Notes under the pieces: generated by a model
Database searches by the model: none
The model's input: only the letters and a program-made list of their open reading frames with translations
Told to the model about the DNA's origin: nothing
Shown: one piece after another, positions 3,601 to 14,667 of the stretch
How positions within the stretch are numbered: position 1 is the first letter of the stretch
Layout of the letters: the number at the start of each line of letters is the position of its first letter
Made by a program: the position numbers and the translations under genes
NCBI GenBank assembly: GCA_020536535.1
Contig: JAHLWZ010000810.1
Coordinates: 38,894-54,284, forward strand
Direction of reading: 5' to 3'
Source: Pelomyxa schiedti
Lineage: Eukaryota > Protista > Evosea
DNA length: 15,391 nt

Positions 3601-4043
3601 GGTTGAAACAAAACTTGACTTTTGGTTTGTTTTGGTTTTTCTTGTGTTTTTTTTTAAATTATGTTTTGGTTTTTTATTCGGCACAAAATAAAAAGTAGCT
3701 ACGCGGATCTAACGGCCAAAAAAAAAACCGAACGGAGGAAAAAAAAACAAACCAAGAATTGAAAGAGAAAAAAATAGGAATTCCTGAAAGCGAAAGGACT
3801 GGGCGTTGAATCAGTTGCTTTTTAATCCGGGGTTCTATCTTTCTATCCTCCGCGCCATTCTCCTCTCTGAGCATGGAAGCATCGCCTATTCCCAAGCCTC
3901 AATAGATACACAACAAGGTCTTTGTGAGCAGCTTCGAGACCCACACCACCAGAAAACACAAAATCCTTTCGCCGTGCCTGATTGTGTGCAATGCACTGCA
4001 TCTTTCACGAACGTTCTTCGTTGCCGTCCACCAACCGGCGAAC
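3601..4043. promoter_or_regulatory. Divergent intergenic and 5'-UTR region shared by MVP (minus) and the ROCO gene (plus). It is A/T-rich with long A tracts.
   Basis: The two genes sit head-to-head with their ATGs 443 bp apart (MVP at 3600, ROCO at 4044). The region contains tracts such as caaaaaaaaaaaccgaacggaggaaaaaaaaac. A 10-codon uORF (ATG 3873 to TAG 3905) is in frame with the ROCO ORF. No TATA element is obvious. Confidence 0.4.
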
Positions 4044-6051
4044 ATGCAACCTGCCAACGACGACCCCCCTTCTCCCTCGCCCCAGCCCACGGAATCCGCA
4101 GACACCCGCCCCTCCGCCTCTGCCTCTCCCCCTCCTTCACACCCATCCCACCACCACCGGGACCAACACCGGCACAGCTGCAGCCCAGAGAGGCAGCACG
4201 AAGGGTGCCCGGCAGACAGCCCCCCGCGGTGCGGCCTGCCCCCCCCGGGGGCCATCCGCGCCCGCGCCTCCACCTCCGCGTCGGTGCTGGACAAGCGGAA
4301 GACCCTGCAGCGCTCCAACGGCGTCCTCAACCTCCGCGGCATGGGCTGCGACGACACCTGCCCGCTGCCCCCGTCCTCGATCCGCGCCTCCTGCTCCCTG
4401 CTGCCGCTGCCCTCGTCCTCGTGCCCGCCCTCGTGCGCCTCCCACGAGGGGATGCCCTGCACCTGCCGCTGCTCCCTCACGACGACTACTACTACTGCTA
4501 CTACTACCTCGGCTTCCTCGTCGTCGCCGAAGGGGGTGGTGCTGCGGAGCCTGGGTAAAAACACTGCTGGGGCACCTACCAGCAAGTCGATGGACTCGGT
4601 GGTTTTGAACCCCACTGGGGGCGTCAAGTGCACTGTGAGGGGCACGGACAACGATCGCAACAACTCGCTCTCTCAGTCTCCAAATGCCACCAGGAAAAAA
4701 TCGACTTCCAAAAGACCTTCCCCATCTCCACCACCAAAATCCACTCCTCTGAAAACAATGGTAACTGTGAGCCAAATGGCCCAGGCTACTACTACGGGGA
4801 TCCCGCAACCTACTGAACAGATAGTACCAACTGGCGATTCAGGTGATTCAGCTTCTAGTAACACCCCTGCGAACAGCAGAACCAAAACGTCTCCAAGGAT
4901 TGCACTTTTTCCCACCATCAAAATACACTGCCTATGGAAACATGGCAGCCATACTACCGTGTCACAACTGTCAAGATACTCCCGTTGCATCGCGGAGGCG
5001 CTAATTCCGGAACTGCAGAGTGATGAACTTGACCGAGCAAGGGCATTAAAGAAGTTGCAGGAACAAAGCCCCAAGATTATCAAAGTGTTTGCCAACGTCT
5101 TCGAAGCTGCTTCTTCCGAGTCACATTCGTCGTTTGACACCTTTGGAGATTTTCACCCAATGGCATCCCTGGCACAGGCTTCCAACATTAGTGACCTAGT
5201 TTCTCCTGGTCTAAATTATACCACCCCCTCAGAGTCTCCCATGTCAGGCGACTCAACCCCAGAGTCAAGAGGTGCCAGCCTTCAAAGTGGAATGACTGAT
5301 GAAACGGCACTTATATTTATGCTTTCTGTGAGTGATAGCTCCATTCCTTATGTTTGGGTACATGCTGCCCATGCAGCTGTTGATGCTCTATGGTGCATTT
5401 GCTTAAGTCCGCGGTTCGCAAAACTTGTGCATCAAAATGTTGTCGTATTTGCATGCCGGCTATTCTTCCACTCTTTGGCATCGTCTTTGACCTGGTCTTC
5501 GCTTCCTCAGCTGCCTCCGTCATGTCTTTTGGAGTCGACTGCCTCAGCGGCGTTGTTGATGTCTTCCTCATCAAGCTCCCTATTATCACCGCACGTACCC
5601 TCTCTATCGCCCACTCCAGACACCAAAGCCACAGGATCTGGTGTGGCTCCACCAGTGGAGGAACCGGAAGCTCCACTAAATCCTCTTCGCAATGCTTCAG
5701 TTCGAAAAGATACCTGTGGTATTCTTTGGCGCTTGACAGAGATTCTAACAAATCGCATTGATGACTCCGGACTTCCTGAGGGGGGTGGACTTCAACAGCG
5801 CATGCAAATAAATAATGTTGCCCTACAGTCAGCAGTATCACGCCTTCTGAAGGCATTCCCTGAACACCAGCGCATCCAATATCACAGTTGTAAGTTGATG
5901 ACAGTTATGATAAAGCGGTATTCATTTTGCTGGGAATTCGTCAAACTTGATGGGCTCAAAGTATTGAGTAGTGCTGCCCGACTCTTAATGAGAACTGCTG
6001 AGGCAATTCCCGATACTCTTCAGGAGCTAAGAGATCATATTATTAACGTTG
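4044..6051 (+). CDS. ROCO-family kinase (LRR-Roc-COR-kinase), exon 1. An N-terminal Pro/Ser/Cys/Thr-rich low-complexity segment (GC-rich, 4047-4560) is followed by an ARM/HEAT-like helical region. The start is the first in-frame ATG at 4044 (upstream 3924 is GTG).
   Basis: The open frame is 2.0 kb long. Its C-terminal part, 'SIPYVWVHAAHAAVDALWCICLSPRFAKLVHQNVVVFACRLF...LKVLSSAARLLMRTAEAIPDTLQELRDHIINV', looks like armadillo-type repeats as found N-terminal in LRRK-type proteins. The codons are C-ending, like the MVP sense strand. The donor GTACTT is at 6052 and the exon ends in phase 1. Confidence 0.7.
4047..4560 (+). other. GC/CpG-rich compositional island (about 70% GC) inside ROCO exon 1. 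It has no stops in any of the six frames and includes a poly-Thr ACT/ACG run at 4483-4512.
   Basis: There is an abrupt composition shift relative to the flanking sequence, which is about 45% GC. In the ROCO frame the codons are predominantly NCC/NTC, consistent with the sense-strand bias seen in MVP. Confidence 0.6.
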
Positions 6052-6106
6052 GTACTTGCCCTCTGCGGACTGGATGCTCTTATTCTTCGTGTGTATATTC
6101 CTCCAG

Positions 6107-6601
6107 CAATGCATACTTATCTTTTTAGTGGTTCAGGGGAGACCACATGCGTTTCTGTTCTATATAATGCCTTGTTAGCAGAACAGTACCAAGAGCTTGT
6201 GTTAACTGAAAATATCACTTCACAGGCCTTGGCTCAATTTTTGCCTTCCCTGTACCCTTTCTCCCGAGTCGTTATGAGTAATTTGGGGCTGGACTCTGTG
6301 CCTATCGAGATAGGCAATCTTTCCAATCTCGTTCAAGTTGATCTGAGTCACAATCAACTTGGTTATGTCCCTTGTTCTTTTGCTAAGCTGGAGAAACTGG
6401 AACTTCTCAACGTTGAATACAATAAGATTGACCGGTTATTCCCAGGGTTTGGGCTCCACCCAACAATGAAACTGATGTGCCAGCATAATCCTCTCAAGGG
6501 AATACCCTTCATGGCCAGAAACTCTCCAAAAAACTTGAAGACTTATTTGAAAGACTTAAATGAAGACATGCACTACTGGAATCGCGTTCGGATACTCGTA
6601 G
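6107..6601 (+). CDS. ROCO kinase, exon 2: leucine-rich repeats plus the start of the Roc GTPase domain.
   Basis: 'MSNLGLDSVPIEIGNLSNLVQVDLSHNQLGYVPCSFAKLEKLELLNVEYNKIDRL' has the LxxLxLxxN LRR consensus. The exon ends '...WNRVRILV|' immediately before the P-loop. The acceptor is tcctccag at 6106 and the donor GTATGA at 6602. Confidence 0.8.
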
Positions 6602-6649
6602 GTATGATAATAGACTCAAATATATAAAAAGAGTAAATCTTTGTTCCAG

Positions 6650-6822
6650 TTGGAGAAGAATCAGCTGGCAAAACTTCTCTCATTCGCCGTTTGCAGTCAC
6701 GCAAATTCAAGTCCAACTCTCTGGCTACAAATGGAATTGAAGTAGCATCGAAGCAAGTAAGTATTGGTGAATCTACACTGGGACCTTCAGTTAAATTTAT
6801 GTGCTGGGACTTTGGTGGACAG
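6650..6822 (+). CDS. ROCO kinase, exon 3: Roc GTPase G1 (P-loop) to G3.
   Basis: 'VGEESAGKTSLIRRLQSRKF...KFMCWDFGGQ' carries the GxxxxGK[ST] P-loop and the DxxGQ switch II motif, as in the LRRK2 Roc domain (LNVWDFAGREEF). The acceptor is ttgttccag at 6649 and the donor GTAGTT at 6823. Confidence 0.8.
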
Positions 6823-6864
6823 GTAGTTCGCCTCTTACCCATAAATTATTCTAAAAGTCCTAAG

Positions 6865-6975
6865 GTGTGCTTCTATCCAACTCACCAGTTCTTCCTATCA
6901 CCCAAAGCCCTTTACCTAGTGACCTTTAGTCTGGAAAAGTTTCAGCTCTCCACTATTGATTACTGGCTTCAGCAG
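6865..6975 (+). CDS. ROCO kinase, exon 4 (Roc domain). The 5' boundary is uncertain.
   Basis: 'VCFYPTHQFFLSPKALYLVTFSLEKFQLSTIDYWLQQ' aligns with LRRK2 'EEFYSTHPHFMTQRALYLAVYDLSK'. The preceding 42-nt intron (6823-6864) is in frame and has no stop, so retention cannot be excluded. The donor GTGTGA is at 6976. Confidence 0.5.
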
Positions 6976-7016
6976 GTGTGATTAGAAGTTTTGTTGTCTG
7001 TTCTGAGATGCACAAG

Positions 7017-7163
7017 ATTGAAGCAATTTCCTCCAAAGATCAAACAGAGCCTCCAGTAATTCTTTGCGGGACGCACTCTGACGTTTTTCCTTCCCTAGAG
7101 GAAGCCACTATACAAATTCAAAGTATGCTTTCCAGATACAAGCAAAGGTTTCACAACATTAAG
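7017..7163 (+). CDS. ROCO kinase, exon 5 (Roc G4 region).
   Basis: 'IEAISSKDQTEPPVILCGTHSDV...' corresponds to LRRK2 'ARASSSPVILVGTHLDV'. The acceptor at 7016 gives a 41-nt intron, although a 32-nt alternative exists. The donor GTATAT is at 7164. Confidence 0.65.
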
Positions 7164-7207
7164 GTATATTGTGACTTTATTGTCTTCCAATATTCATCTG
7201 AGTCCAG

Positions 7208-7291
7208 GGAGCAATTGCACTGAGCAATAGCACTGGCATTGGCATCAATTCACTTAAGACGCTTCTCCTAAAAGTCGCTAAGGATACGAAG
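7208..7291 (+). CDS. ROCO kinase, exon 6 (end of Roc).
   Basis: 'GAIALSNSTGIGINSLKTLLLKVAKDTK' is in phase 0 at both ends. The flanking introns are 44 nt (7164-7207) and 43 nt (7292-7334). Confidence 0.65.
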
Positions 7292-7334
7292 GTAGTCCTT
7301 TGTCGAATACATTCTTTATTCATAAGTGGAATAG

Positions 7335-7510
7335 CTCACGAATATCGAAATTCCCACATCTTACTACTGCCTATCAAAACGGGTGATCTCGTTGCAAAAG
7401 GCATCCCCTGGAATGCGGGTAATGCCCTGGATGAGCTTTTATCAGCTCGCAAACCAGGTGAACTTATTTTGCCCTGTAAGTGTCCAACTTGCAGCGGAAT
7501 TTCTGTGCAG
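7335..7510 (+). CDS. ROCO kinase, exon 7 (COR-A).
   Basis: 'LTNIEIPTSYYCLSKRVISLQKA...QVNLFCPVSVQLAAEFLCS' aligns with LRRK2 COR 'GQLIPDCYVELEKIILSERKN...ENELPHAVHFLNES'. Internal GT sites (GTGAAC, GTAAGT) are read through. The donor GTAGAA at 7511 is required because an in-frame TAG follows. Confidence 0.6.
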
Positions 7511-7552
7511 GTAGAACTAGCTTCCTTTTATGCTTTCCTTTCCTAATCCCAG

Positions 7553-7619
7553 CAGTATGGGTTATTTGTTACACTACAACCACGGTTTACTTGCGGATGT
7601 GGTGTTTATGGACATGCAG
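7553..7619 (+). CDS. ROCO kinase, exon 8 (COR). The acceptor is either 7552 or 7555.
   Basis: 'SMGYLLHYNHGLLADVVFMDMQ' aligns with LRRK2 'SGVLLHFQDPALQLSDLYFVEPK'. The donor GTATTC is at 7620. Confidence 0.6.
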
Positions 7620-7661
7620 GTATTCGAACTCCTTCGTAATTTTTTCTGACATCTCCTATAG

Positions 7662-7751
7662 TGGGTTGCTAACGTTATGGCGACACTGATTTCGTTTACC
7701 CACAATTTCGGTAAAAGAGATGGGCTTCTTAGACCAGAGGACCTTAAACAG
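7662..7751 (+). CDS. ROCO kinase, exon 9 (COR).
   Basis: 'WVANVMATLISFTHNFGKRDGLLRPEDLKQ' aligns with LRRK2 'WLCKIMAQILT...GIISRRDVEKFL'. The preceding 42-nt intron has a CTGAC branch-like motif. Confidence 0.65.
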
Positions 7752-7797
7752 GTTCCCTATTGTTATCAATGCTCTTTAATTAAATCATGTGCCTAAG

Positions 7798-8033
7798 ATT
7801 CTGAAAGGAAGCACCACAAATTCACTGGAATTCATAGAGCTTCTTGTAAAATTCAACATTGCTCATGTTATTTCTAGCAATGACTCACTTCTCATCCCGT
7901 GCCTCCTGTCTGATGCCTGCCCCAATATGGAGTGGCCTCCACAATCTCCAAATGATAGCCTTACTTCACCTATGGTGATAAGTGCTTGTTCTAGGTACTA
8001 CAGATTATATGAATTTCGGTTTCTGCCTCTTGG
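7798..8033 (+). CDS. ROCO kinase, exon 10 (COR).
   Basis: 'ILKGSTTNSLEFIELLVKFNIAHVISSNDSLLIPCLLSD...RYYRLYEFRFLPLG' aligns with LRRK2 'YFKLLEKFQIALPIGEEYLLVPSSLSD...IIIRLYEMPYFPMG'. The donor GTGTGC is at 8034. Confidence 0.75.
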
Positions 8034-8083
8034 GTGTGCCAGCTGATGTTATAGAGGTTTCCTTACATTTTTCCATGAAATAG

Positions 8084-8301
8084 CTTTATGGGTAGATTGA
8101 TTACACAAATACTCCAGAGCCCAAATATATCCATGCTGAATTGCTGGAAGGATGGGCTTATTATTACAGATAAACTCCATCCCCAGTTTTGTCTGTTTAA
8201 GTATGACCCTGAACTGTGCACTGTGTCTCTTGATGTTGCTCTGTTTGGCTCTCTTGAGGACCCCAAGGCATCTTTGCTGCGAATATGTATTGAAATGATA
8301 G
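8084..8301 (+). CDS. ROCO kinase, exon 11 (COR).
   Basis: 'FMGRLITQILQSPNISMLNCWKDGLIITDKLHPQFCLFKYDPELCTVSLDVALFGS...' aligns with LRRK2 'FWSRLINRLLEISPYMLSGRE...'. The preceding intron is 50 nt. Confidence 0.75.
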
Positions 8302-8342
8302 GTGGGGATGATGTAAATCCTTGTACCCTCACAATAAAATAG

Positions 8343-8506
8343 AAGCCCTAGCGGAATGTTCATACCCAAGATTATTTTATTGTCTTCAACGAAGAGTTCC
8401 CTGCAACCACTGTAAAGCTCTCAGCACTGCTTCAGTTTTCAAGTATGAAGATATTGTATCACTGTATGTTTCTGGGCAAACAGACGTGAAATGTAATGGT
8501 GACTCT
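8343..8506 (+). CDS. ROCO kinase, exon 12 (COR-B). The 3' boundary is ambiguous.
   Basis: 'EALAECSYPRLFYCLQRRVPCNHCKAL...' resembles LRRK2 'DSLMEEWFPGLLEI'. A phase-0 donor is needed to reach the acceptor at 8553. Candidates are 8455, 8467, 8485, 8506, 8512 and 8515. I chose 8506 because it gives the modal 47-nt intron. Confidence 0.35.
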
Positions 8507-8553
8507 GTTACGGTTGTACCTATCAAATGCTACTGTTTACTGACACACCTAAG

Positions 8554-8649
8554 TTGGAAGACTTAGCACCGGACATAACATTCACTGATATACCAGTCCT
8601 AAAGGATGTACGAATTGTTAGAAAACTGGGTGAAGGAGGCTTTGGGGCT
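8554..8649 (+). CDS. ROCO kinase, exon 13: the COR-kinase junction and the kinase glycine-rich loop.
   Basis: 'LEDLAPDITFTDIPVLKDVRIVRKLGEGGFGA' carries the GxGxFG motif. The donor GTACTT at 8650 is the same hexamer as the intron 1 donor. Confidence 0.75.
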
Positions 8650-8693
8650 GTACTTCCATCTTTCCTCCAATTCAATCTTAGAATCAGTATTAG

Positions 8694-8738
8694 GTTTACC
8701 AAGGAATGCTAAATACGAGCAGCTGGGTGGCAGTAAAA
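8694..8738 (+). CDS. ROCO kinase, exon 14 (kinase subdomains I-II; VAVK catalytic lysine).
   Basis: 'VYQGMLNTSSWVAVK'. Donor options at 8739, 8742 and 8745 all preserve the frame, and 8739 (GTAGTT) gives a 42-nt intron. Confidence 0.6.
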
Positions 8739-8780
8739 GTAGTTGTGCTATGTTTCGACACAAATAACAAATGACTACAG

Positions 8781-8918
8781 GAGTTACTCGGTTCTGGAGA
8801 GGACACAGTACAGAAATTTACGCAGTTCCAGCGGGAAACTGCAATAATGAACTTCTTACATCATCCAAACCTCGTCTCACTTCTTGGAATAACTCTGACG
8901 CCTCCTCGTATGGTTTTA
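8781..8918 (+). CDS. ROCO kinase, exon 15 (kinase subdomains III-V).
   Basis: 'ELLGSGEDTVQKFTQFQRETAIMNFLHHPNLVSLLGITLTPPRMVL'. From memory, Dictyostelium Roco4 reads '[48 protein letters not shown]'. The donor GTATGT is at 8919. Confidence 0.75.
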
Positions 8919-8961
8919 GTATGTACCGCCAGAATAGCCGGAAAGTACTAAGTTCCCACAG

Positions 8962-9124
8962 GAATTCATACCTGGAGGAGACCTTTCACATTTCATGCAC
9001 CCACAAGCAGAGAAGACCATCTCACAAGAAGAATTCGACTGGGTATACAGATTGAACATCGCTATTGACATAGCTCGGGGGATGGAATACCTTCAAAAAA
9101 TAAAACCTCCCGTGATACATCGAG
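8962..9124 (+). CDS. ROCO kinase, exon 16 (kinase subdomains V-VIa).
   Basis: 'EFIPGGDLSHFMH...IAIDIARGMEYLQKIKPPVIHR'. The donor GTAAAT is at 9125. Confidence 0.8.
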
Positions 9125-9172
9125 GTAAATATCTATTACATTCCACTCTTTGCACAGTTCTCAGTGCACTAG

Positions 9173-9237
9173 ATTTACGACCTGCGAATATTTTCCTCAC
9201 TGGAACCACTGAAGGACCAATTTATGCGAAAGTTGCG
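9173..9237 (+). CDS. ROCO kinase, exon 17 (catalytic loop HRDLRPANIFL).
   Basis: The acceptor at 9172 restores 'HR|DLRPANIFLTGTTEGPIYAKVA'. The alternative acceptor at 9157 would destroy the HRD motif. The donor GTATGT is at 9238. Confidence 0.75.
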
Positions 9238-9291
9238 GTATGTGTTTTTGATAGCATTTGGTTCTTTTTTACCAATTCAATTCCACCTTAG

Positions 9292-9298
9292 GATTTTG
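9292..9298 (+). CDS. ROCO kinase, exon 18: a 7-nt micro-exon GATTTTG encoding the DFG motif.
   Basis: This is the only splice solution that keeps both DFG and the downstream 'LSRRVSEMNDSLPNWEWLAPE' in frame. Read-through from either side hits a stop. The acceptor ttccaccttag is at 9291 and the donor GTACCT at 9299. The flanking introns are 54 and 47 nt. Confidence 0.5.
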
Positions 9299-9345
9299 GT
9301 ACCTCGTTGTCTATTCCCGCCTCCCATAACTTCTTACTTTCCAAG

Positions 9346-9456
9346 GTCTCAGCAGAAGGGTATCCGAGATGAATGACTCTCTTCCAAATTGGGAATGGCT
9401 GGCTCCTGAAGTTTATTCAACCTCCTCGGTCACTAAGAAATATGACTGCAGCACAG
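9346..9456 (+). CDS. ROCO kinase, exon 19 (activation segment and APE motif).
   Basis: '(G)LSRRVSEMNDSLPNWEWLAPEVYSTSSVTKKYDCST'. The donor GTTAAT is at 9457. Confidence 0.7.
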
Positions 9457-9503
9457 GTTAATAAGTGGTTAACGGCAAATCAAATTGAACGAACTTCCTT
9501 CAG

Positions 9504-9652
9504 ATGTATATAGCTTTGGGCTTATATTGTATGAAATGGAGGCCTTGCGGATTCCCTATTCGGAATTTCGTGAAGACCCAAGATACAACACAACAGCAGG
9601 CACAAATAAAGCTGGGAAGCCTATTCTAAGATTCCAACTAATTAAATTCAAA
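9504..9652 (+). CDS. ROCO kinase, exon 20 (kinase subdomains IX-X).
   Basis: 'DVYSFGLILYEMEALRIPYSEFREDPRYNTTAGTNKAGKPILRFQLIKFK'. The donor GTACAC is at 9653 and the following intron is 47 nt. Confidence 0.7.
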
Positions 9653-9699
9653 GTACACAAACGCAATTTTTCCCCTTTTAAAATAATACACCCAATTAG

Positions 9700-9882
9700 A
9701 ACGCAATTGAGGAAGGACTGCGGCCCACTCTCCTAGAATCCCCTGAAATACCCCTTGGTTACAATGAATTGATGAAGCAATGCTGGGATAATGACCCCAC
9801 CAATAGACCCACCTTCTCCCAGATTTACGAGGACCTTACAAGGATATATGCAAATAACGACTGCAGTAGCCAACAGCACTAA
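9700..9882 (+). CDS. ROCO kinase, exon 21 (kinase subdomain XI, C-terminus, TAA stop at 9880-9882).
   Basis: 'NAIEEGLRPTLLESPEIPLGYNELMKQCWDNDPTNRPTFSQIYEDLTRIYANNDCSSQQH*'. From memory, Roco4 reads '[39 protein letters not shown]'. An AATAAA-like signal (aataataaa) sits about 30 nt downstream. The summed exon phases give a 4926-nt CDS of about 1641 aa. Confidence 0.75.
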   Translation, partial: NAIEEGLRPTLLESPEIPLGYNELMKQCWDNDPTNRPTFSQIYEDLTRIYANNDCSSQQH

Positions 9883-10233: not shown

Positions 10234-10860
10234 TCATTGAAAGGCAGCAACCAGTAGTATCATGCTTCTCTTCACTTGATCCTGAGAGTTATTCAATATT
10301 GTTAGTGCAGTTCGGGAACTTTCTATACCATTGTGTTGAGAGACAGACTGGGCGTCGGTGGATAAGGTGAAGGCAACTTGTAGTTTCGGTTTCAGCTTTT
10401 GCTTCACCTTTGCTTTCGTACGCGAGTTTGGCGACACAACGGGGTCCTCTGCATTGCCCACCTCCATCGCTTCGTCGGTCGACCGAGCAGTCGTTGCTGG
10501 CGCCGATTCCGCCCATCTGGCCCCTGTGGATGCCGTTTGGCCCCCCAATGGCTGCGGATCGCTCGTCTCCTCATCCTGTCCGTTGTCGCAGGGCAGCGCA
10601 CTCGCAGAAGAAGGTGCGCTGGAACCAGCCGCACGCGCCACAGCGTGCGGGCTTTGGATTCCGCCATCAGCGCTTGAGTTCTGCCCCACGCGCGCGCGCT
10701 TCCGTGCCGTTTCTCGCGCGAAATCCGACGCGTCGCCATGGGAAGAGGGCGACGACGCGGGAGAAAACGCAGGCGAGCGGGCGTGGGCTGCGGACCTGGA
10801 GTGCTGTTGCTGGCGGCGGCGTGGGAGAGCCGTGTGGAGGCTGAGCTGCACGATTTGTTC
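10234..10860 (-). other. Unresolved gene-like segment. The open frame encodes a low-complexity Ser/Ala/Arg-rich peptide ending at the TGA stop at 10234. Both strand and frame are uncertain.
   Basis: The ORF stays open across the GC-rich block 10400-10860, where every frame is open, and across the moderate-GC tail 10240-10400. A strong 3' splice-site motif ttccttgtgtattgcag sits at 10873-10857 (minus). No upstream exon with an in-frame ATG was found and there is no homology to anchor the frame. The plus-strand frame 10358..10882 shows C-ending codon bias similar to genuine genes here. Confidence 0.25.
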
Positions 10861-10956
10861 TGCAATACACAAGGAAATGTGAGAACGTGAAGGTTGGCAA
10901 GTGACTTGTGTGTGAGTGTGTTTTGTTTTGGTGTCAGGGAGAGACAACACAAACAC

Positions 10957-11349
10957 CCAAGTCCATGTGTGCCGTTCGCAAGGTTTTCTTTTTACGAGAT
11001 CTTCGGGTAAGACTACTTACTGTAAGCTCTCAGTGCAACTCACTGTCACTGCTTGGAGGACTGCTCCCCCAAGACCGTGGATCGTGATGTAGGATTATGG
11101 CTGACGGAGGAGCCGGAGTTTTAGGGAGTTACACACATCTTGATATCTGAATCATTCTGCGACTTCGAAGTCGCACTATCAACTGCATCTTCCTCGTTTG
11201 GGGAAAAAAGAGATAGGAAGTTTCTGGTGGCCGAAACCGCAACGGAGTTTTCCTTGGCGTTTTTATATCGATTTTGTTTTATGATGAAAGAAAATAAATA
11301 AATAAACAAACAGACACTCGTTCAATCGCTTATCCCACGCGCCAATAAG
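10957..11349. promoter_or_regulatory. Intergenic and upstream region of the SCP-type phosphatase gene. It may be divergent with the unresolved minus-strand locus.
   Basis: The region is A/T-rich with (aaat)n-like runs at 11290-11310 immediately upstream of the ATG at 11350. Confidence 0.3.
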
Positions 11350-11380: not shown

Positions 11381-11421
11381 GTGAGTGCATTCTGCCATAT
11401 CGTACTGTTCATTCTTAACAG

Positions 11422-11705
11422 TAACGATAGGCACGCCACTCAAACAAGAGCAAGAGCCAATAGTAGTGCCAGAGAAACCCAAAGAGAAACCAGCTGCAAA
11501 AAAGTCAGGGATTTCCGCATTGCTATGCAGTGTCTTCTCTGTTCTTTTCAATCCTCTGATTCCGAGGTATGGTGCATTCATGAATATGCTGGCTCCAAAT
11601 CAACCTCATTCTAGACCTCTTCTCGAGGAACCCCATCCAAGTCATGTTGGGAAGAAGACTTTGGTCTTGGATTTAGATGACACCCTTGTCCACAGTTCAT
11701 TTCAA
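11422..11705 (+). CDS. SCP/NIF-type phosphatase, exon 2: a hydrophobic segment plus the DxDxT catalytic motif.
   Basis: '...KKSGISALLCSVFSVLFNPLIP...GKKTLVLDLDDTLVHSSFQ' carries the DLDxTLVHSS signature of the FCP1/SCP family. The donor GTGAGT is at 11706. Confidence 0.8.
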
Positions 11706-11757
11706 GTGAGTCACTCACAATTTATTGTGTTGTGTAAACCTGACAACTGATGCACAG

Positions 11758-11907
11758 CCGGTTGAACACTGTGACATGACGTTCCCAATTGAACTCGAAG
11801 GGAAACCCTTCACTGTTTATTTGAACAAAAGGCCAGGCTTGGATGAGTTCTTGCGTTACGCGACTCAGAATTTTGAAGTAGTAGTTTTCACTGCTAGTCT
11901 CAAACGA
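11758..11907 (+). CDS. SCP/NIF-type phosphatase, exon 3.
   Basis: 'PVEHCDMTFPIELEGKPFTVYLNKRPGLDEFLRYATQNFEVVVFTASLKR' aligns with human SCP1 '[50 protein letters not shown]'. The introns are 52 and 49 nt and both have GTGAGT donors. Confidence 0.85.
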
Positions 11908-11956
11908 GTGAGTTTCTGCTTTGTAATTTCACACATTTACTTACTTGATTTTCCAG

Positions 11957-12460
11957 TACGCGGATCCAGTTATAAACGCGATTGATCCGGACCACACAAT
12001 TCCCCACAGACTCTACAGAGGGTCATGCACAATGATACAGGGGCACTACATAAAGGACTTGAGCAGATTGGGCAGAGAGCTCCGGAACTGCATCATTGTT
12101 GACAATTCCCCAGTGTCTTACGCCCTTCATGCCCAGCACGCCATTCCAATCTCCACCTATGTAAATAGTCCCCATGATAGGTGCTTGGATTCGCTCCGCT
12201 TGATCCTTGATCAAGTCAACTCACACCCCGATGTGTGCGCGACCCTCAAGTGGGTTTTAAAGAGCCCTCTTGCCGCCGATCACATGGCGCAAGCAGAGCT
12301 CTCAGCGCGAGCCACTCTCGCGCCCCCCAAAGCTACAACAATCACCATCGCATCAACAACGACGTCATCTTCAAGAGCCACTGCGCCGCCAAACGCGCCA
12401 ACAATGACTACTGAATGCACATCAAAAACGCTAGTGCTCACAGCCAGTGGTCAGAGTTGA
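11957..12460 (+). CDS. SCP/NIF-type phosphatase, exon 4 (TGA stop at 12458-12460).
   Basis: '[69 protein letters not shown]' aligns with SCP1 '[69 protein letters not shown]'. It has a Thr/Ser/Ala-rich C-terminal tail. An AATAAA lies at about 12692. The total CDS is 969 nt, or 322 aa. Confidence 0.85.
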   Translation, partial: [167 protein letters not shown]

Positions 12461-12817: not shown

Positions 12818-13212
12818 ATGGACGCGACACAAGCCAAAACTACTGAAGTCGTAACGGCACCTATTGCTACGCAACAACCTTCGGCCGCAGAAAGTTGTTC
12901 CACAAAGGTACTCGAAGTTAGCCCTCCAAGTGAAACAGACAAACAAAATTGTACCAATGGAGAAGCAGTAGTGCCAGAAAAAAAAGAACTAGAACCAAAA
13001 AATAAAGACGCAACCGAAGCGCCTCAAACACAGCAAGCTGAACAAAACACACAAATACCAACACAACAGCAACAAGAAGCAGCCGTGCAACCAGGTGATG
13101 GGAAGCCAGTCCCACCAAACGATAACCGTACCTTGTACTTTGGAGGCCTCGCGTGGCAAACATCGGAGTCTGACTTGGCTCATCACATTGAAGATACATG
13201 CGGTTGTCAAGT
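12818..13212 (+). CDS. Two-RRM RNA-binding protein, exon 1: a Q/E/T-rich N-terminus and the first half of RRM1 (RNP-2 'LYFGGL').
   Basis: The ATG at 12818 has the context acaagaATGG and follows an A-rich leader. The exon ends in phase 2 at a GTGAGT donor (13213). A 44-nt intron follows. Confidence 0.75.
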
Positions 13213-13256
13213 GTGAGTCACTCCTTGCTTCATTATTTTCAATTAATTTTGTCTAG

Positions 13257-14055
13257 GTTGGCAGTTGACATAAAAACCAAAGGAAGACAATCTTTAGGTT
13301 TTGGGTTTGTGGAAGTAGATACCCCTGAATCTGCATCAGTAGTAGTCAGTAAGCTGCACAATCAATCATTCCAGGGCCGTGTGATATCGGTGGATTTTGC
13401 TCGCCCTCGTAACTTCGTTCCGTCATCTTCTAGCTCGACATCGTCTTCAACAAACTCGACGTCAACATCCTCTCCTGTGCTATCCAGACCACCAATGCGA
13501 ACGGGCTTTCGCACCCAATGGGGGAATTCATACGGATTTCCAATGCCCAGAATGTGGCCAAGATTCCCGCGGGTGAGATATCCTTTTGTGCAAGCACCTA
13601 TTATGCCGAGATATACCCCACAACCAGCATTGATAGCTCAACCAAAGATGTCACTACCACCCCCTCAGCCACAGCTTCCCCTTCCCCCACCACCTCTAAT
13701 TCAAACCCACACTGTTTCCCAACCACTCATTTCTTCTCAGCCATCTGCTCCCCAGTCCCTTCTACCACAACAAGATGGAAGATATTCTATGCCACAGCGC
13801 CGTGGTCAATCTGTATCAGCCCAGCCTTTGCTCCCTACAACCCCGAGCCAACCTGCATTCCAGACCCCGGTATACAATGCCGCACCTCCTGCAATGCAAT
13901 CTACCACCCAATCTCAACAAACTAGACAAGGTGCTCCAATTCAACAGAACTTCCAGCGAGAAAGGTTTATTTTATTTGCTGCCCATCCCCTTTATCTCAA
14001 TAGTGATAGACAATTCTTTACTCAGCGGAGTTACAACGGACAAAGATCACCCAAG
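13257..14055 (+). CDS. RRM protein, exon 2: the RNP-1 motif of RRM1 plus a long Ser/Pro/Gln-rich linker.
   Basis: '(V)LAVDIKTKGRQSLGFGFVEVDTPESASVVVSKLHNQSFQGRVISVDFARPRN' has the RNP-1 octamer LGFGFVEV. The open frame runs to the GTAACA donor at 14056. A 39-nt in-frame GT..AG segment near 13960 cannot be ruled in or out as an intron. Confidence 0.65.
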
Positions 14056-14108
14056 GTAACAAATGCAATTTTGGTTACGGAGCCTAACTGCGAATTTAAA
14101 TAAAATAG

Positions 14109-14524
14109 TCTAGAAATATGTTGGCAATCAACTACCCTGCACCAGCAGCACAAATGATCAATCAGAACCCCCGAACCAACACTGGCATTTCCTACCAACA
14201 ACAGTACAACCAAGCACCGCAGATGTTGCAGTCACCACAGTGGCCACAGGTAGGCCAACCGCAACAAATGATGCAACCACAAATGATGCAGCCGCAAATG
14301 ATGCAACCACAACAAATGATGCAGGCACCTCAGATGATGCAACCACAAATGATGCAACCCCAGATGATGCAGCCTCAACAAATGATGCCGCAGTCCCAGA
14401 TGATGCAACCACAACAAATGATGCAACCACAGCAAATGATGCAGCCACAACAAATGATGCAGCAACCCCAGATGATGCAACCGCAGCAAATGATGCAGCC
14501 ACAGATGAATTATCCTCCAAGAAG
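14109..14524 (+). CDS. RRM protein, exon 3: a Gln/Pro/Met-rich tandem-repeat domain.
   Basis: The 53-nt intron 14056-14108 shifts the frame into 'SRNMLAINYPAPAAQMINQN...QPQQMMQPQMMQPQMMQPQQMM...QPQMNYPPR'. This is the only frame that continues in phase into RRM2. The donor GTTCTT is at 14525. Confidence 0.6.
14256..14507 (+). repeat. Imperfect 15/18-nt coding tandem repeat of about 15 units: CAACC(A/G)CA(A/G)(CAA)ATGATG.
   Basis: Seen directly. Units such as caaccacaaatgatg, cagccgcaaatgatg, caaccacaacaaatgatg and caaccccagatgatg vary mostly at synonymous positions, giving (Q)PQ(Q)MM peptide repeats. It produces spurious long ORFs in five other frames. Confidence 0.85.
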
Positions 14525-14567
14525 GTTCTTCCTCTTTGGAGGTTGCCAAATTACTGACTCTCTTCAG

Positions 14568-14667
14568 GGTTGAATCCCGCACTACCCTCTATATCGGAAA
14601 CCTTCCTGCTGTTGTTACCGATGCCACACTTAGGGAGATTTTTTCAGAGATGCCCGTGAAGGTTAAG
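14568..14667 (+). CDS. RRM protein, exon 4: the first half of RRM2 (RNP-2 'LYIGNL').
   Basis: '(R)VESRTTLYIGNLPAVVTDATLREIFSEMPVKVK'. The donor GTATGA is at 14668 and a 48-nt intron follows. Confidence 0.7.

Follow-up and report, generated by a model that had tools for sequence, protein, structure and literature searches.

Ultra-short coding microexons, including ones that encode parts of kinase domains, are already known, and the exon described here would add another case. Plant genomes carry many microexons of at most 15 nt, which are conserved and often absent from annotations; competition between the two introns around such an exon is proposed, with later removal of one, usually the upstream intron (PMC8831610). 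In Chlamydomonas, Pkinase and PK_Tyr_Ser-Thr are the top domains encoded by microexons of this size (PMC8831610). For C. elegans it was reported that microexons with flanking introns of approximately 49-58 nt do not need PRP-40 for their inclusion, which fits default intron definition, and that a shorter flanking intron relieves the PRP-40 dependence of a microexon (PMC8378409). Papers that unite the terms microexon, DFG motif and kinase were not found in the literature.

The window analyzed here is a stretch of 15,391 nt from the amoebozoan Pelomyxa schiedti, for which 7.4 introns per gene have been reported. Most of it has a GC content of approximately 42-50% and its introns measure approximately 45 nt, against 60.7% GC and a mean intron of 137 bp in Mastigamoeba balamuthi. 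It contains a ROCO kinase gene in which, as the evidence below suggests, positions 9292-9298 are likely to be a genuine 7-nt internal coding exon of the main mRNA (micro-exon 18).

Gene model of the ROCO kinase

The gene model was obtained by tblastn searches guided by homologues, and each junction was read manually. In this model, the start codon is less certain than the rest, as are introns 1, 6 and 11. Gene finders based on minimal introns and codon usage were unreliable, as exons were skipped and introns were read through, and their output was superseded by the homology-guided junctions. The resulting reading frame of 1643 aa stays open across all 21 exons, and the domains and all catalytic motifs are present. 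Pfam profiles exceeded their cut-offs for Roc (residues 831-951, E-value 1.3e-22), COR-A (residues 1029-1153, 1.9e-17) and COR-B (residues 1182-1324, 1.2e-10), and a TKL-type kinase domain (PK_Tyr_Ser-Thr, 1.1e-47) occupies residues 1345-1629, C-terminal to COR. The LRR_8 match in the N-terminal part (E-value 3.8e-5) reaches 23.8 bits against a cut-off of 27 bits; the LRR part of the ROCO homologue P0242, a tblastn query whose alignments cover LRR, Roc, COR and kinase, aligns there. The gene is a true ROCO gene with the order Roc-COR-A-COR-B-kinase, preceded by putative LRRs, and the first-pass annotation, which had been made from the sequence without database searches and had named it a ROCO kinase, is thereby confirmed. 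The best solved relative of the kinase is Dictyostelium Roco4 (4F0F, E-value 2e-55, top PDB match) and the best named kinase match is from Pelomyxa sp. The reported intron density of P. schiedti fits the architecture of this gene. The features of the window are listed in Table 1.

Table 1. Features modeled in the 15,391-nt window
Feature	Positions	Strand	Description
MVP (major vault protein) gene	3600-1102	-	4 exons, 832 aa
ROCO coding region	4044-9882	+	21 exons, 20 GT-AG introns, 1643 aa; LRR-Roc-COR-A-COR-B-kinase model
Kinase-domain region	8554-9882	+	9 exons; GEGGFGAV, VAVK, HRDLRPAN, DFG and APE in the spliced product
Exon 17	9173-9237	+	(D)LRPANIFLTGTTEGPIYAKVA; phase 0 end after the Ala preceding DFG; homologue alignments end at 9237
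Intron 17	9238-9291	+	54 nt, GTATGT...CCACCTTAG, GT-AG
Micro-exon 18 (predicted)	9292-9298	+	GATTTTG, 7 nt
Intron 18	9299-9345	+	47 nt, GTACCT...CTTTCCAAG, GT-AG, phase 1
Exon 19	9346-9456	+	(G)LSRRVSEMNDSLPNWEWLAPEVYSTSSVTKKYDCST; activation segment through APE; begins GT CTC AGC AGA AGG
Premature TGA	9370-9372	+	reached on skipping of micro-exon 18 or retention of intron 18
CTD/FCP1-like small phosphatase gene	11385-12460	+	DLDDTLVHSSF motif
RRM-type RNA-binding protein gene	12818-14600	+	

Several further properties of the ROCO gene were recorded. Intron 11 (8302-8351) has two in-frame acceptors 9 nt apart, at 8342 and 8351, and the choice between them would add or drop the residues EAL in COR-B. 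The choice is ambiguous, with a slight preference for 8342 from the spacing of homologues. Two introns, 6823-6864 (42 nt) and 9125-9172 (48 nt), are multiples of three without an in-frame stop. Their retention would add 14 and 16 residues, respectively, without truncation, the former in the Roc domain and the latter in the kinase between HR and D of HRD, while retention of any of the other 18 ROCO introns leads to a premature stop. The first exon contains a region of 70% GC (4001-4500) that encodes a low-complexity sequence rich in Pro, Ser, Thr and Ala, and the remaining gene has approximately 42% GC.

Reading frame at the DFG motif

The last codons of exon 17 are ATT TAT GCG AAA GTT GCG, ending at 9237. 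With GAT (Asp) and TTT (Phe), micro-exon 18 contributes two complete codons of DFG, and its final G opens the codon for Gly. When 9173-9237, 9292-9298 and 9346-9456 are joined, the stop-free product DLRPANIFLTGTTEGPIYAKVADFGLSRRVSEMNDSLPNWEWLAPEVYSTSSVTKKYDCST is obtained. Around the micro-exon it reads DLRPANIFLTGTTEGPIYAKVA-DF-G-LSRRVSEMNDSLPNWEWLAPE, with ...IYAKVA directly before DFG, and the predicted order of junctions in the mRNA is AAAGTTGCG/GATTTTG/GTCTCAGCAG, with slashes at the exon boundaries. Between exons 17 and 19 the frame is offset by 7 nt, exactly the length of the micro-exon; inclusion of the latter keeps the frame and restores the conserved residues.

All mis-splicing outcomes that were examined, namely skipping and retention of either intron, result in a premature stop. 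Intron 17 has a length divisible by three and carries an in-frame TAG at its 3' end (9289-9291), at which translation of a transcript retaining it would stop. Retention of intron 18 shifts the frame and leads to the TGA at 9370-9372. Skipping of the micro-exon corresponds to an intron of 108 nt (9238-9345), is out of frame and yields KVAVSAEGYPR before the same TGA, which is reached after 8 codons, 25 nt into exon 19, and has two introns downstream of it. On re-reading, the introns of 54 and 47 nt and the GATTTTG between them, as the first-pass annotation had placed them, proved exact. Its claim that read-through in either direction meets stop codons also holds, given the TAG in intron 17 and the TGA beyond intron 18, and its exon numbering agrees with the 21-exon model, in which the micro-exon is exon 18.

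Homologue evidence for the DFG codons

The segment A-K-x-A-D-F-G is invariant in an alignment with ten homologues, and all 20 of the 20 best homologues have [AG]DFG[LM] at the position of the micro-exon in a gap-free alignment. The same applies to the closest solved structure, as AKVADFGLSQQ of Roco4 (4F0F) aligns with the spliced AKVADFGLSRR without a gap. The window was also searched by tblastn with nine homologous queries (five database proteins and four ORF translations of one locus, L002) and additionally with P0242. In every case the alignments end with ...AKVA at 9237 and restart with GLSR at 9345/6, so that exactly the residues D and F remain unaligned.

The pattern AG/GAYTTYG/GT occurs once on both strands of the 15,391 nt, and 0.02 occurrences are expected from shuffled sequences; therefore, the micro-exon is beyond chance. 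Scaled from this value, the chance of finding the motif at one of the approximately 25-30 admissible positions within the 108-nt gap, i.e. those that leave two introns of normal size, is approximately 2e-5. It had been claimed in the first-pass annotation that a 7-nt exon must encode the DFG motif. In the best gene model such an exon is indeed needed, for Asp, Phe and the initial base of the Gly codon, on the basis of the frame, the exact two-residue gap against the homologues and the splice signals. The kinase is very likely of the active type, with its catalytic Asp predicted to be supplied by micro-exon 18.

Flanking introns and splice signals

With a length below the limit of 15 nt, an AG directly upstream, a GT directly downstream and plausible introns on both sides, AG/GATTTTG/GT has the form of a canonical microexon. 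Introns 17 and 18 resemble in size the 18 other ROCO introns, which range from 38 to 55 nt with a median of 44 nt, and, with the exception of a 142-nt intron in the MVP gene, the introns of the adjacent genes (46, 49, 52 and 56 nt). Donor and acceptor position weight matrices were built from these 18 introns of the same gene model; the number of sites is small, and the scores are supporting evidence and not decisive. In the region 9225-9420, no other GT scores as high as the donors at 9238 (6.5 bits) and 9299 (5.8 bits). Both fall in the upper half of the real donors, which score between -0.7 and 8.0 bits in leave-one-out tests. The acceptor at 9291 is the top AG locally (6.2 bits). The acceptor of intron 18 at 9345 (CCAAG) is mediocre (2.6 bits) within the leave-one-out range of real acceptors (-5.4 to 10.5 bits), and an AG further downstream at 9352 (TCTCAG) scores above it with 4.6 bits. 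The GTACCT donor of intron 18 is also used by the ROCO intron 8516-8553, and the branch site of intron 18 may be CATAAC, with the A at 9329, or TCTTAC, with the A at 9336.

RNA structure around the micro-exon did not exceed that of shuffled sequences (z = +1.07), Rfam gave no matches in the window, and introns 17 and 18 showed no significant similarity to other introns. Among 190 intron pairs, the highest similarity was found between introns 8650-8693 and 9238-9291, which have the 10-mer CCAATTCAAT in common near their 3' ends. An origin by intron duplication ('introner') was rejected for this pair, as its score of 21 compares with a maximum of 22 for shuffled sequences.

Alternative splice paths

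All GT-AG paths with one or two introns between the anchored exons were enumerated, and 59 of them are open and in frame. The earlier view that DFG can be kept in frame only by the 7-nt exon is too narrow, since a 14-nt exon (9292-9305) followed by the intron 9306-9352 gives the motif as well, as do 17-nt variants and paths that use the alternative upstream donors 9232 and 9244. The same annotation had regarded a single intron of 107 nt, deleting DFG, as the sole alternative. The canonical skip measures 108 nt and is out of frame, and loss of DFG within an open frame requires other junctions: the single introns 9242-9345 (104 nt), 9261-9352 (92 nt) and 9261-9358 (98 nt), and three further ones that end at 9368.

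Use of the 14-nt exon (GATTTTGGTACCTC) together with the 47-nt intron 9306-9352, whether in the main mRNA or in a minor isoform, would be in frame, obeys the GT-AG rule and gives a protein with DFGTSRR that has the same length as the one with DFGLSRR; its acceptor at 9352 is also the better-scoring one (4.6 against 2.6 bits for 9345). The donor at 9306 (GTTGTC), however, scores only -0.1 bits, a value that 75% of all GTs in the gene equal or exceed, and the residue following DFG is L or M in 20 of the 20 best homologues, with Thr found in none of the 110 sequences that have a D[FYL]G motif among the 120 matches listed. We regard this path as very improbable. Still less probable is that one longer frame-keeping intron (9242-9345 or 9261-9352) is removed, that the product is a DFG-less pseudokinase and that GATTTTG is coincidental. 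Such paths are open and of the GT-AG type, 9242-9345 giving KVAVC-LSRR; their donors at 9242 and 9261 score 4.5-4.7 bits, and the 142-nt intron of the neighboring MVP gene indicates that an intron of approximately 100 nt is possible in this genome. Against this, all 18 of the 18 other ROCO introns measure 55 nt or less, so that 104 or 92 nt would be twice the normal length, and stronger donors and acceptors would have to be bypassed. DFG is present in every close homologue, the remaining catalytic motifs are intact, and a well-placed AG/GATTTTG/GT is not expected by chance, as calculated above. A pseudokinase in this sense would have no encodable Mg-binding Asp at the DFG position, whereas here DFG can be encoded by canonical splicing. 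An assembly error or a decaying pseudogene that lacks a functional splicing pattern is the least probable explanation of the locus, as the 1643-aa frame is open over 21 exons with intact domains, the missing D and F codons could not be created by a single indel, and the flanking exons are offset by precisely the length of GATTTTG.

A proposed regulatory role of the micro-exon

It had also been proposed that regulated inclusion of the micro-exon, with skipping as an off-switch for the output of the ROCO kinase, generates kinase-dead isoforms. As a purely logical point, the catalytic Asp depends on the recognition of a 7-nt exon, and a kinase made from the skipped transcript would end after strand beta-8, at a stop that lies upstream of two introns, which makes the skipped form a possible target of nonsense-mediated mRNA decay (NMD). 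A full-length kinase-dead isoform, on the other hand, is impossible by skipping because the 7-nt exon shifts the frame; the length is not frame-preserving, as that of a switch-like microexon would be. Both neighboring introns are short and have signals of normal strength, and in such a setting microexons do not require PRP-40 for inclusion (PMC8378409); the local RNA structure is unremarkable. Frequent exon skipping that preserves the frame has been described as an animal trait, with high skipping rates reported for bilaterian animals only and frame preservation for animals generally (PMC6142364). The proposed switch is therefore not supported, as skipping leads to a frameshift and the TGA in exon 19 and the introns are ordinary. 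It is considered unlikely, and micro-exon 18 as a regulatory device of any kind is about as unlikely or marginally more so.

At the lower end of this range we place a tunable recognition of the micro-exon. Its basis would be either mRNA decay linked to skipping or to intron detention, by which the amount of active ROCO kinase would be set, or the pairing of 9306 with 9352, which would swap the Leu after DFG for Thr. The residue after DFG influences whether a kinase prefers to phosphorylate Ser or Thr. If either applied, splice-site choice at a micro-exon would be a direct control of the catalytic center of an LRRK2-type kinase in a protist.

Proposed splicing of micro-exon 18

The reading preferred here is that micro-exon 18 is probably an ordinary by-product of a very intron-dense gene and is always included. 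Its inclusion in the mRNA, the order of intron removal and its constitutive use are what we infer from the anatomy, frame logic, homologue fit and signal quality described above. In this intron-dense genome of an amoebozoan, two ordinary short spliceosomal introns would happen to be separated by 7 nt; the first, of phase 0, would precede the Asp codon, and the second, of phase 1, would interrupt the Gly codon of DFG. Each of them, with 54 and 47 nt, would be recognized separately by intron definition in the manner of the other 38-55-nt introns of the gene. Their removal is most likely sequential, because acceptor and donor complexes are hard to fit 7 nt apart, and once the first intron is gone, the 7 nt would become part of an exon of normal size. 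The main mRNA would then encode ...YAKVADFGLSRR..., and inclusion of the micro-exon would probably be constitutive. Sequential removal and essentially constitutive inclusion are also expected from the behavior of microexons in C. elegans and plants (PMC8378409, PMC8831610).

Homologous loci in databases

In a collection of 5.8 billion clusters, identity to the spliced kinase did not exceed 51% for any protein, the best matches having 50-51%. A scan of JGI metagenomes with exact peptides, two of them spanning introns, gave no matches. A profile-based metagenome scan recovered 80 distant kinases with at most 41% identity, none of them informative; the two seed patterns included AK[VI]ADFG[LM]S, which favors loci with an uninterrupted DFG. 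The micro-exon structure was shared by none of 86 homologous loci (the best approximately 50% identical): in 84 of them the alignment is unbroken over the DFG region, and the other two have introns elsewhere, downstream. The environmental ROCO homologues that were examined also have an uninterrupted DFG.

Two environmental loci, homologues with partial coverage, were considered as sharing an intron with the P. schiedti gene and were rejected, as their introns lie at other positions, after DFGLS(R) in P0020/L006 and inside the WxW-APE segment in L046. Both encode ROCO-like kinases. The intron in the region 1040-1260 of L006 splits the Arg codon of DFGLSR and has a GTACCT donor, and the intron of L046 lies in the region 1770-2050. 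The activation-segment region thus gained introns at different positions in different lineages. The only AGGAYTTYGGT match among all loci, in L073, has no relation to a kinase DFG.

Neighboring genes

The MVP gene has introns at 3464-3323 (142 nt), 3145-3090 (56 nt) and 1745-1700 (46 nt), the first being the only long intron seen in the window. Its product is 80% identical to MVP of Mastigella eilhardi, the best match with a name, and 84% identical to a JGI protein. Between the ROCO and phosphatase genes, the region 10501-11000 has 61% GC and contains an ORF of 240 aa on the minus strand. The two introns of the phosphatase gene, 11706-11757 (52 nt) and 11908-11956 (49 nt), have GTGAGT donors, unlike the GTA-rich donors of the ROCO gene. 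After the RRM gene, a tandem repeat at 14256-14503 with a unit of 18/36 nt and approximately 14 copies encodes a low-complexity tail rich in Gln, Pro and Met ('PQQMMQ').

Significance and comparison with known systems

A 7-nt exon is almost surely missed by automatic gene prediction, which would leave a broken gene or the annotation of a DFG-less 'pseudokinase'. For this reason, the inventories of kinases and ROCO proteins in intron-dense protists could be systematically wrong. The locus also provides an extreme natural test case for an intron-definition spliceosome that is confronted with two introns only 7 nt apart, and it poses the questions of the order of their removal and of steric exclusion between acceptor and donor complexes. 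Its value lies mainly in this annotation warning and in the test of intron definition, and it says nothing yet on the regulation of ROCO/LRRK2-type kinases.

The constitutive microexons of up to 15 nt in plants and green algae (Yu et al. 2022, PMC8831610) likewise comprise a few nt, are flanked by canonical introns and encode part of a conserved domain. The exon described here differs in that it is amoebozoan, that it lies between two tiny introns of 54 and 47 nt and that none of the 86 homologous loci shares it. The C. elegans microexons with very short introns (Choudhary et al. 2021, PMC8378409) are similarly too small for exon definition, but they are mostly neuronal, alternative and a multiple of three in length, whereas the P. 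schiedti exon has 7 nt and is probably constitutive. The SRRM3/4-dependent neuronal microexons of animals are also very small exons inside a functional protein surface or domain. They preserve the frame, have long introns with specific enhancers and are demonstrably regulated, and none of these properties holds or is evident for micro-exon 18. At the protein level, Dictyostelium Roco4 and human LRRK2 have the same LRR-Roc-COR-kinase order, the LRR part being putative here, and the segment AKVADFGLS of Roco4 is identical to that of the spliced kinase. In contrast to both, the P. schiedti gene has a long low-complexity N-terminal exon, encodes no WD40 domain after the kinase within the window, and is cut by approximately 20 tiny introns.
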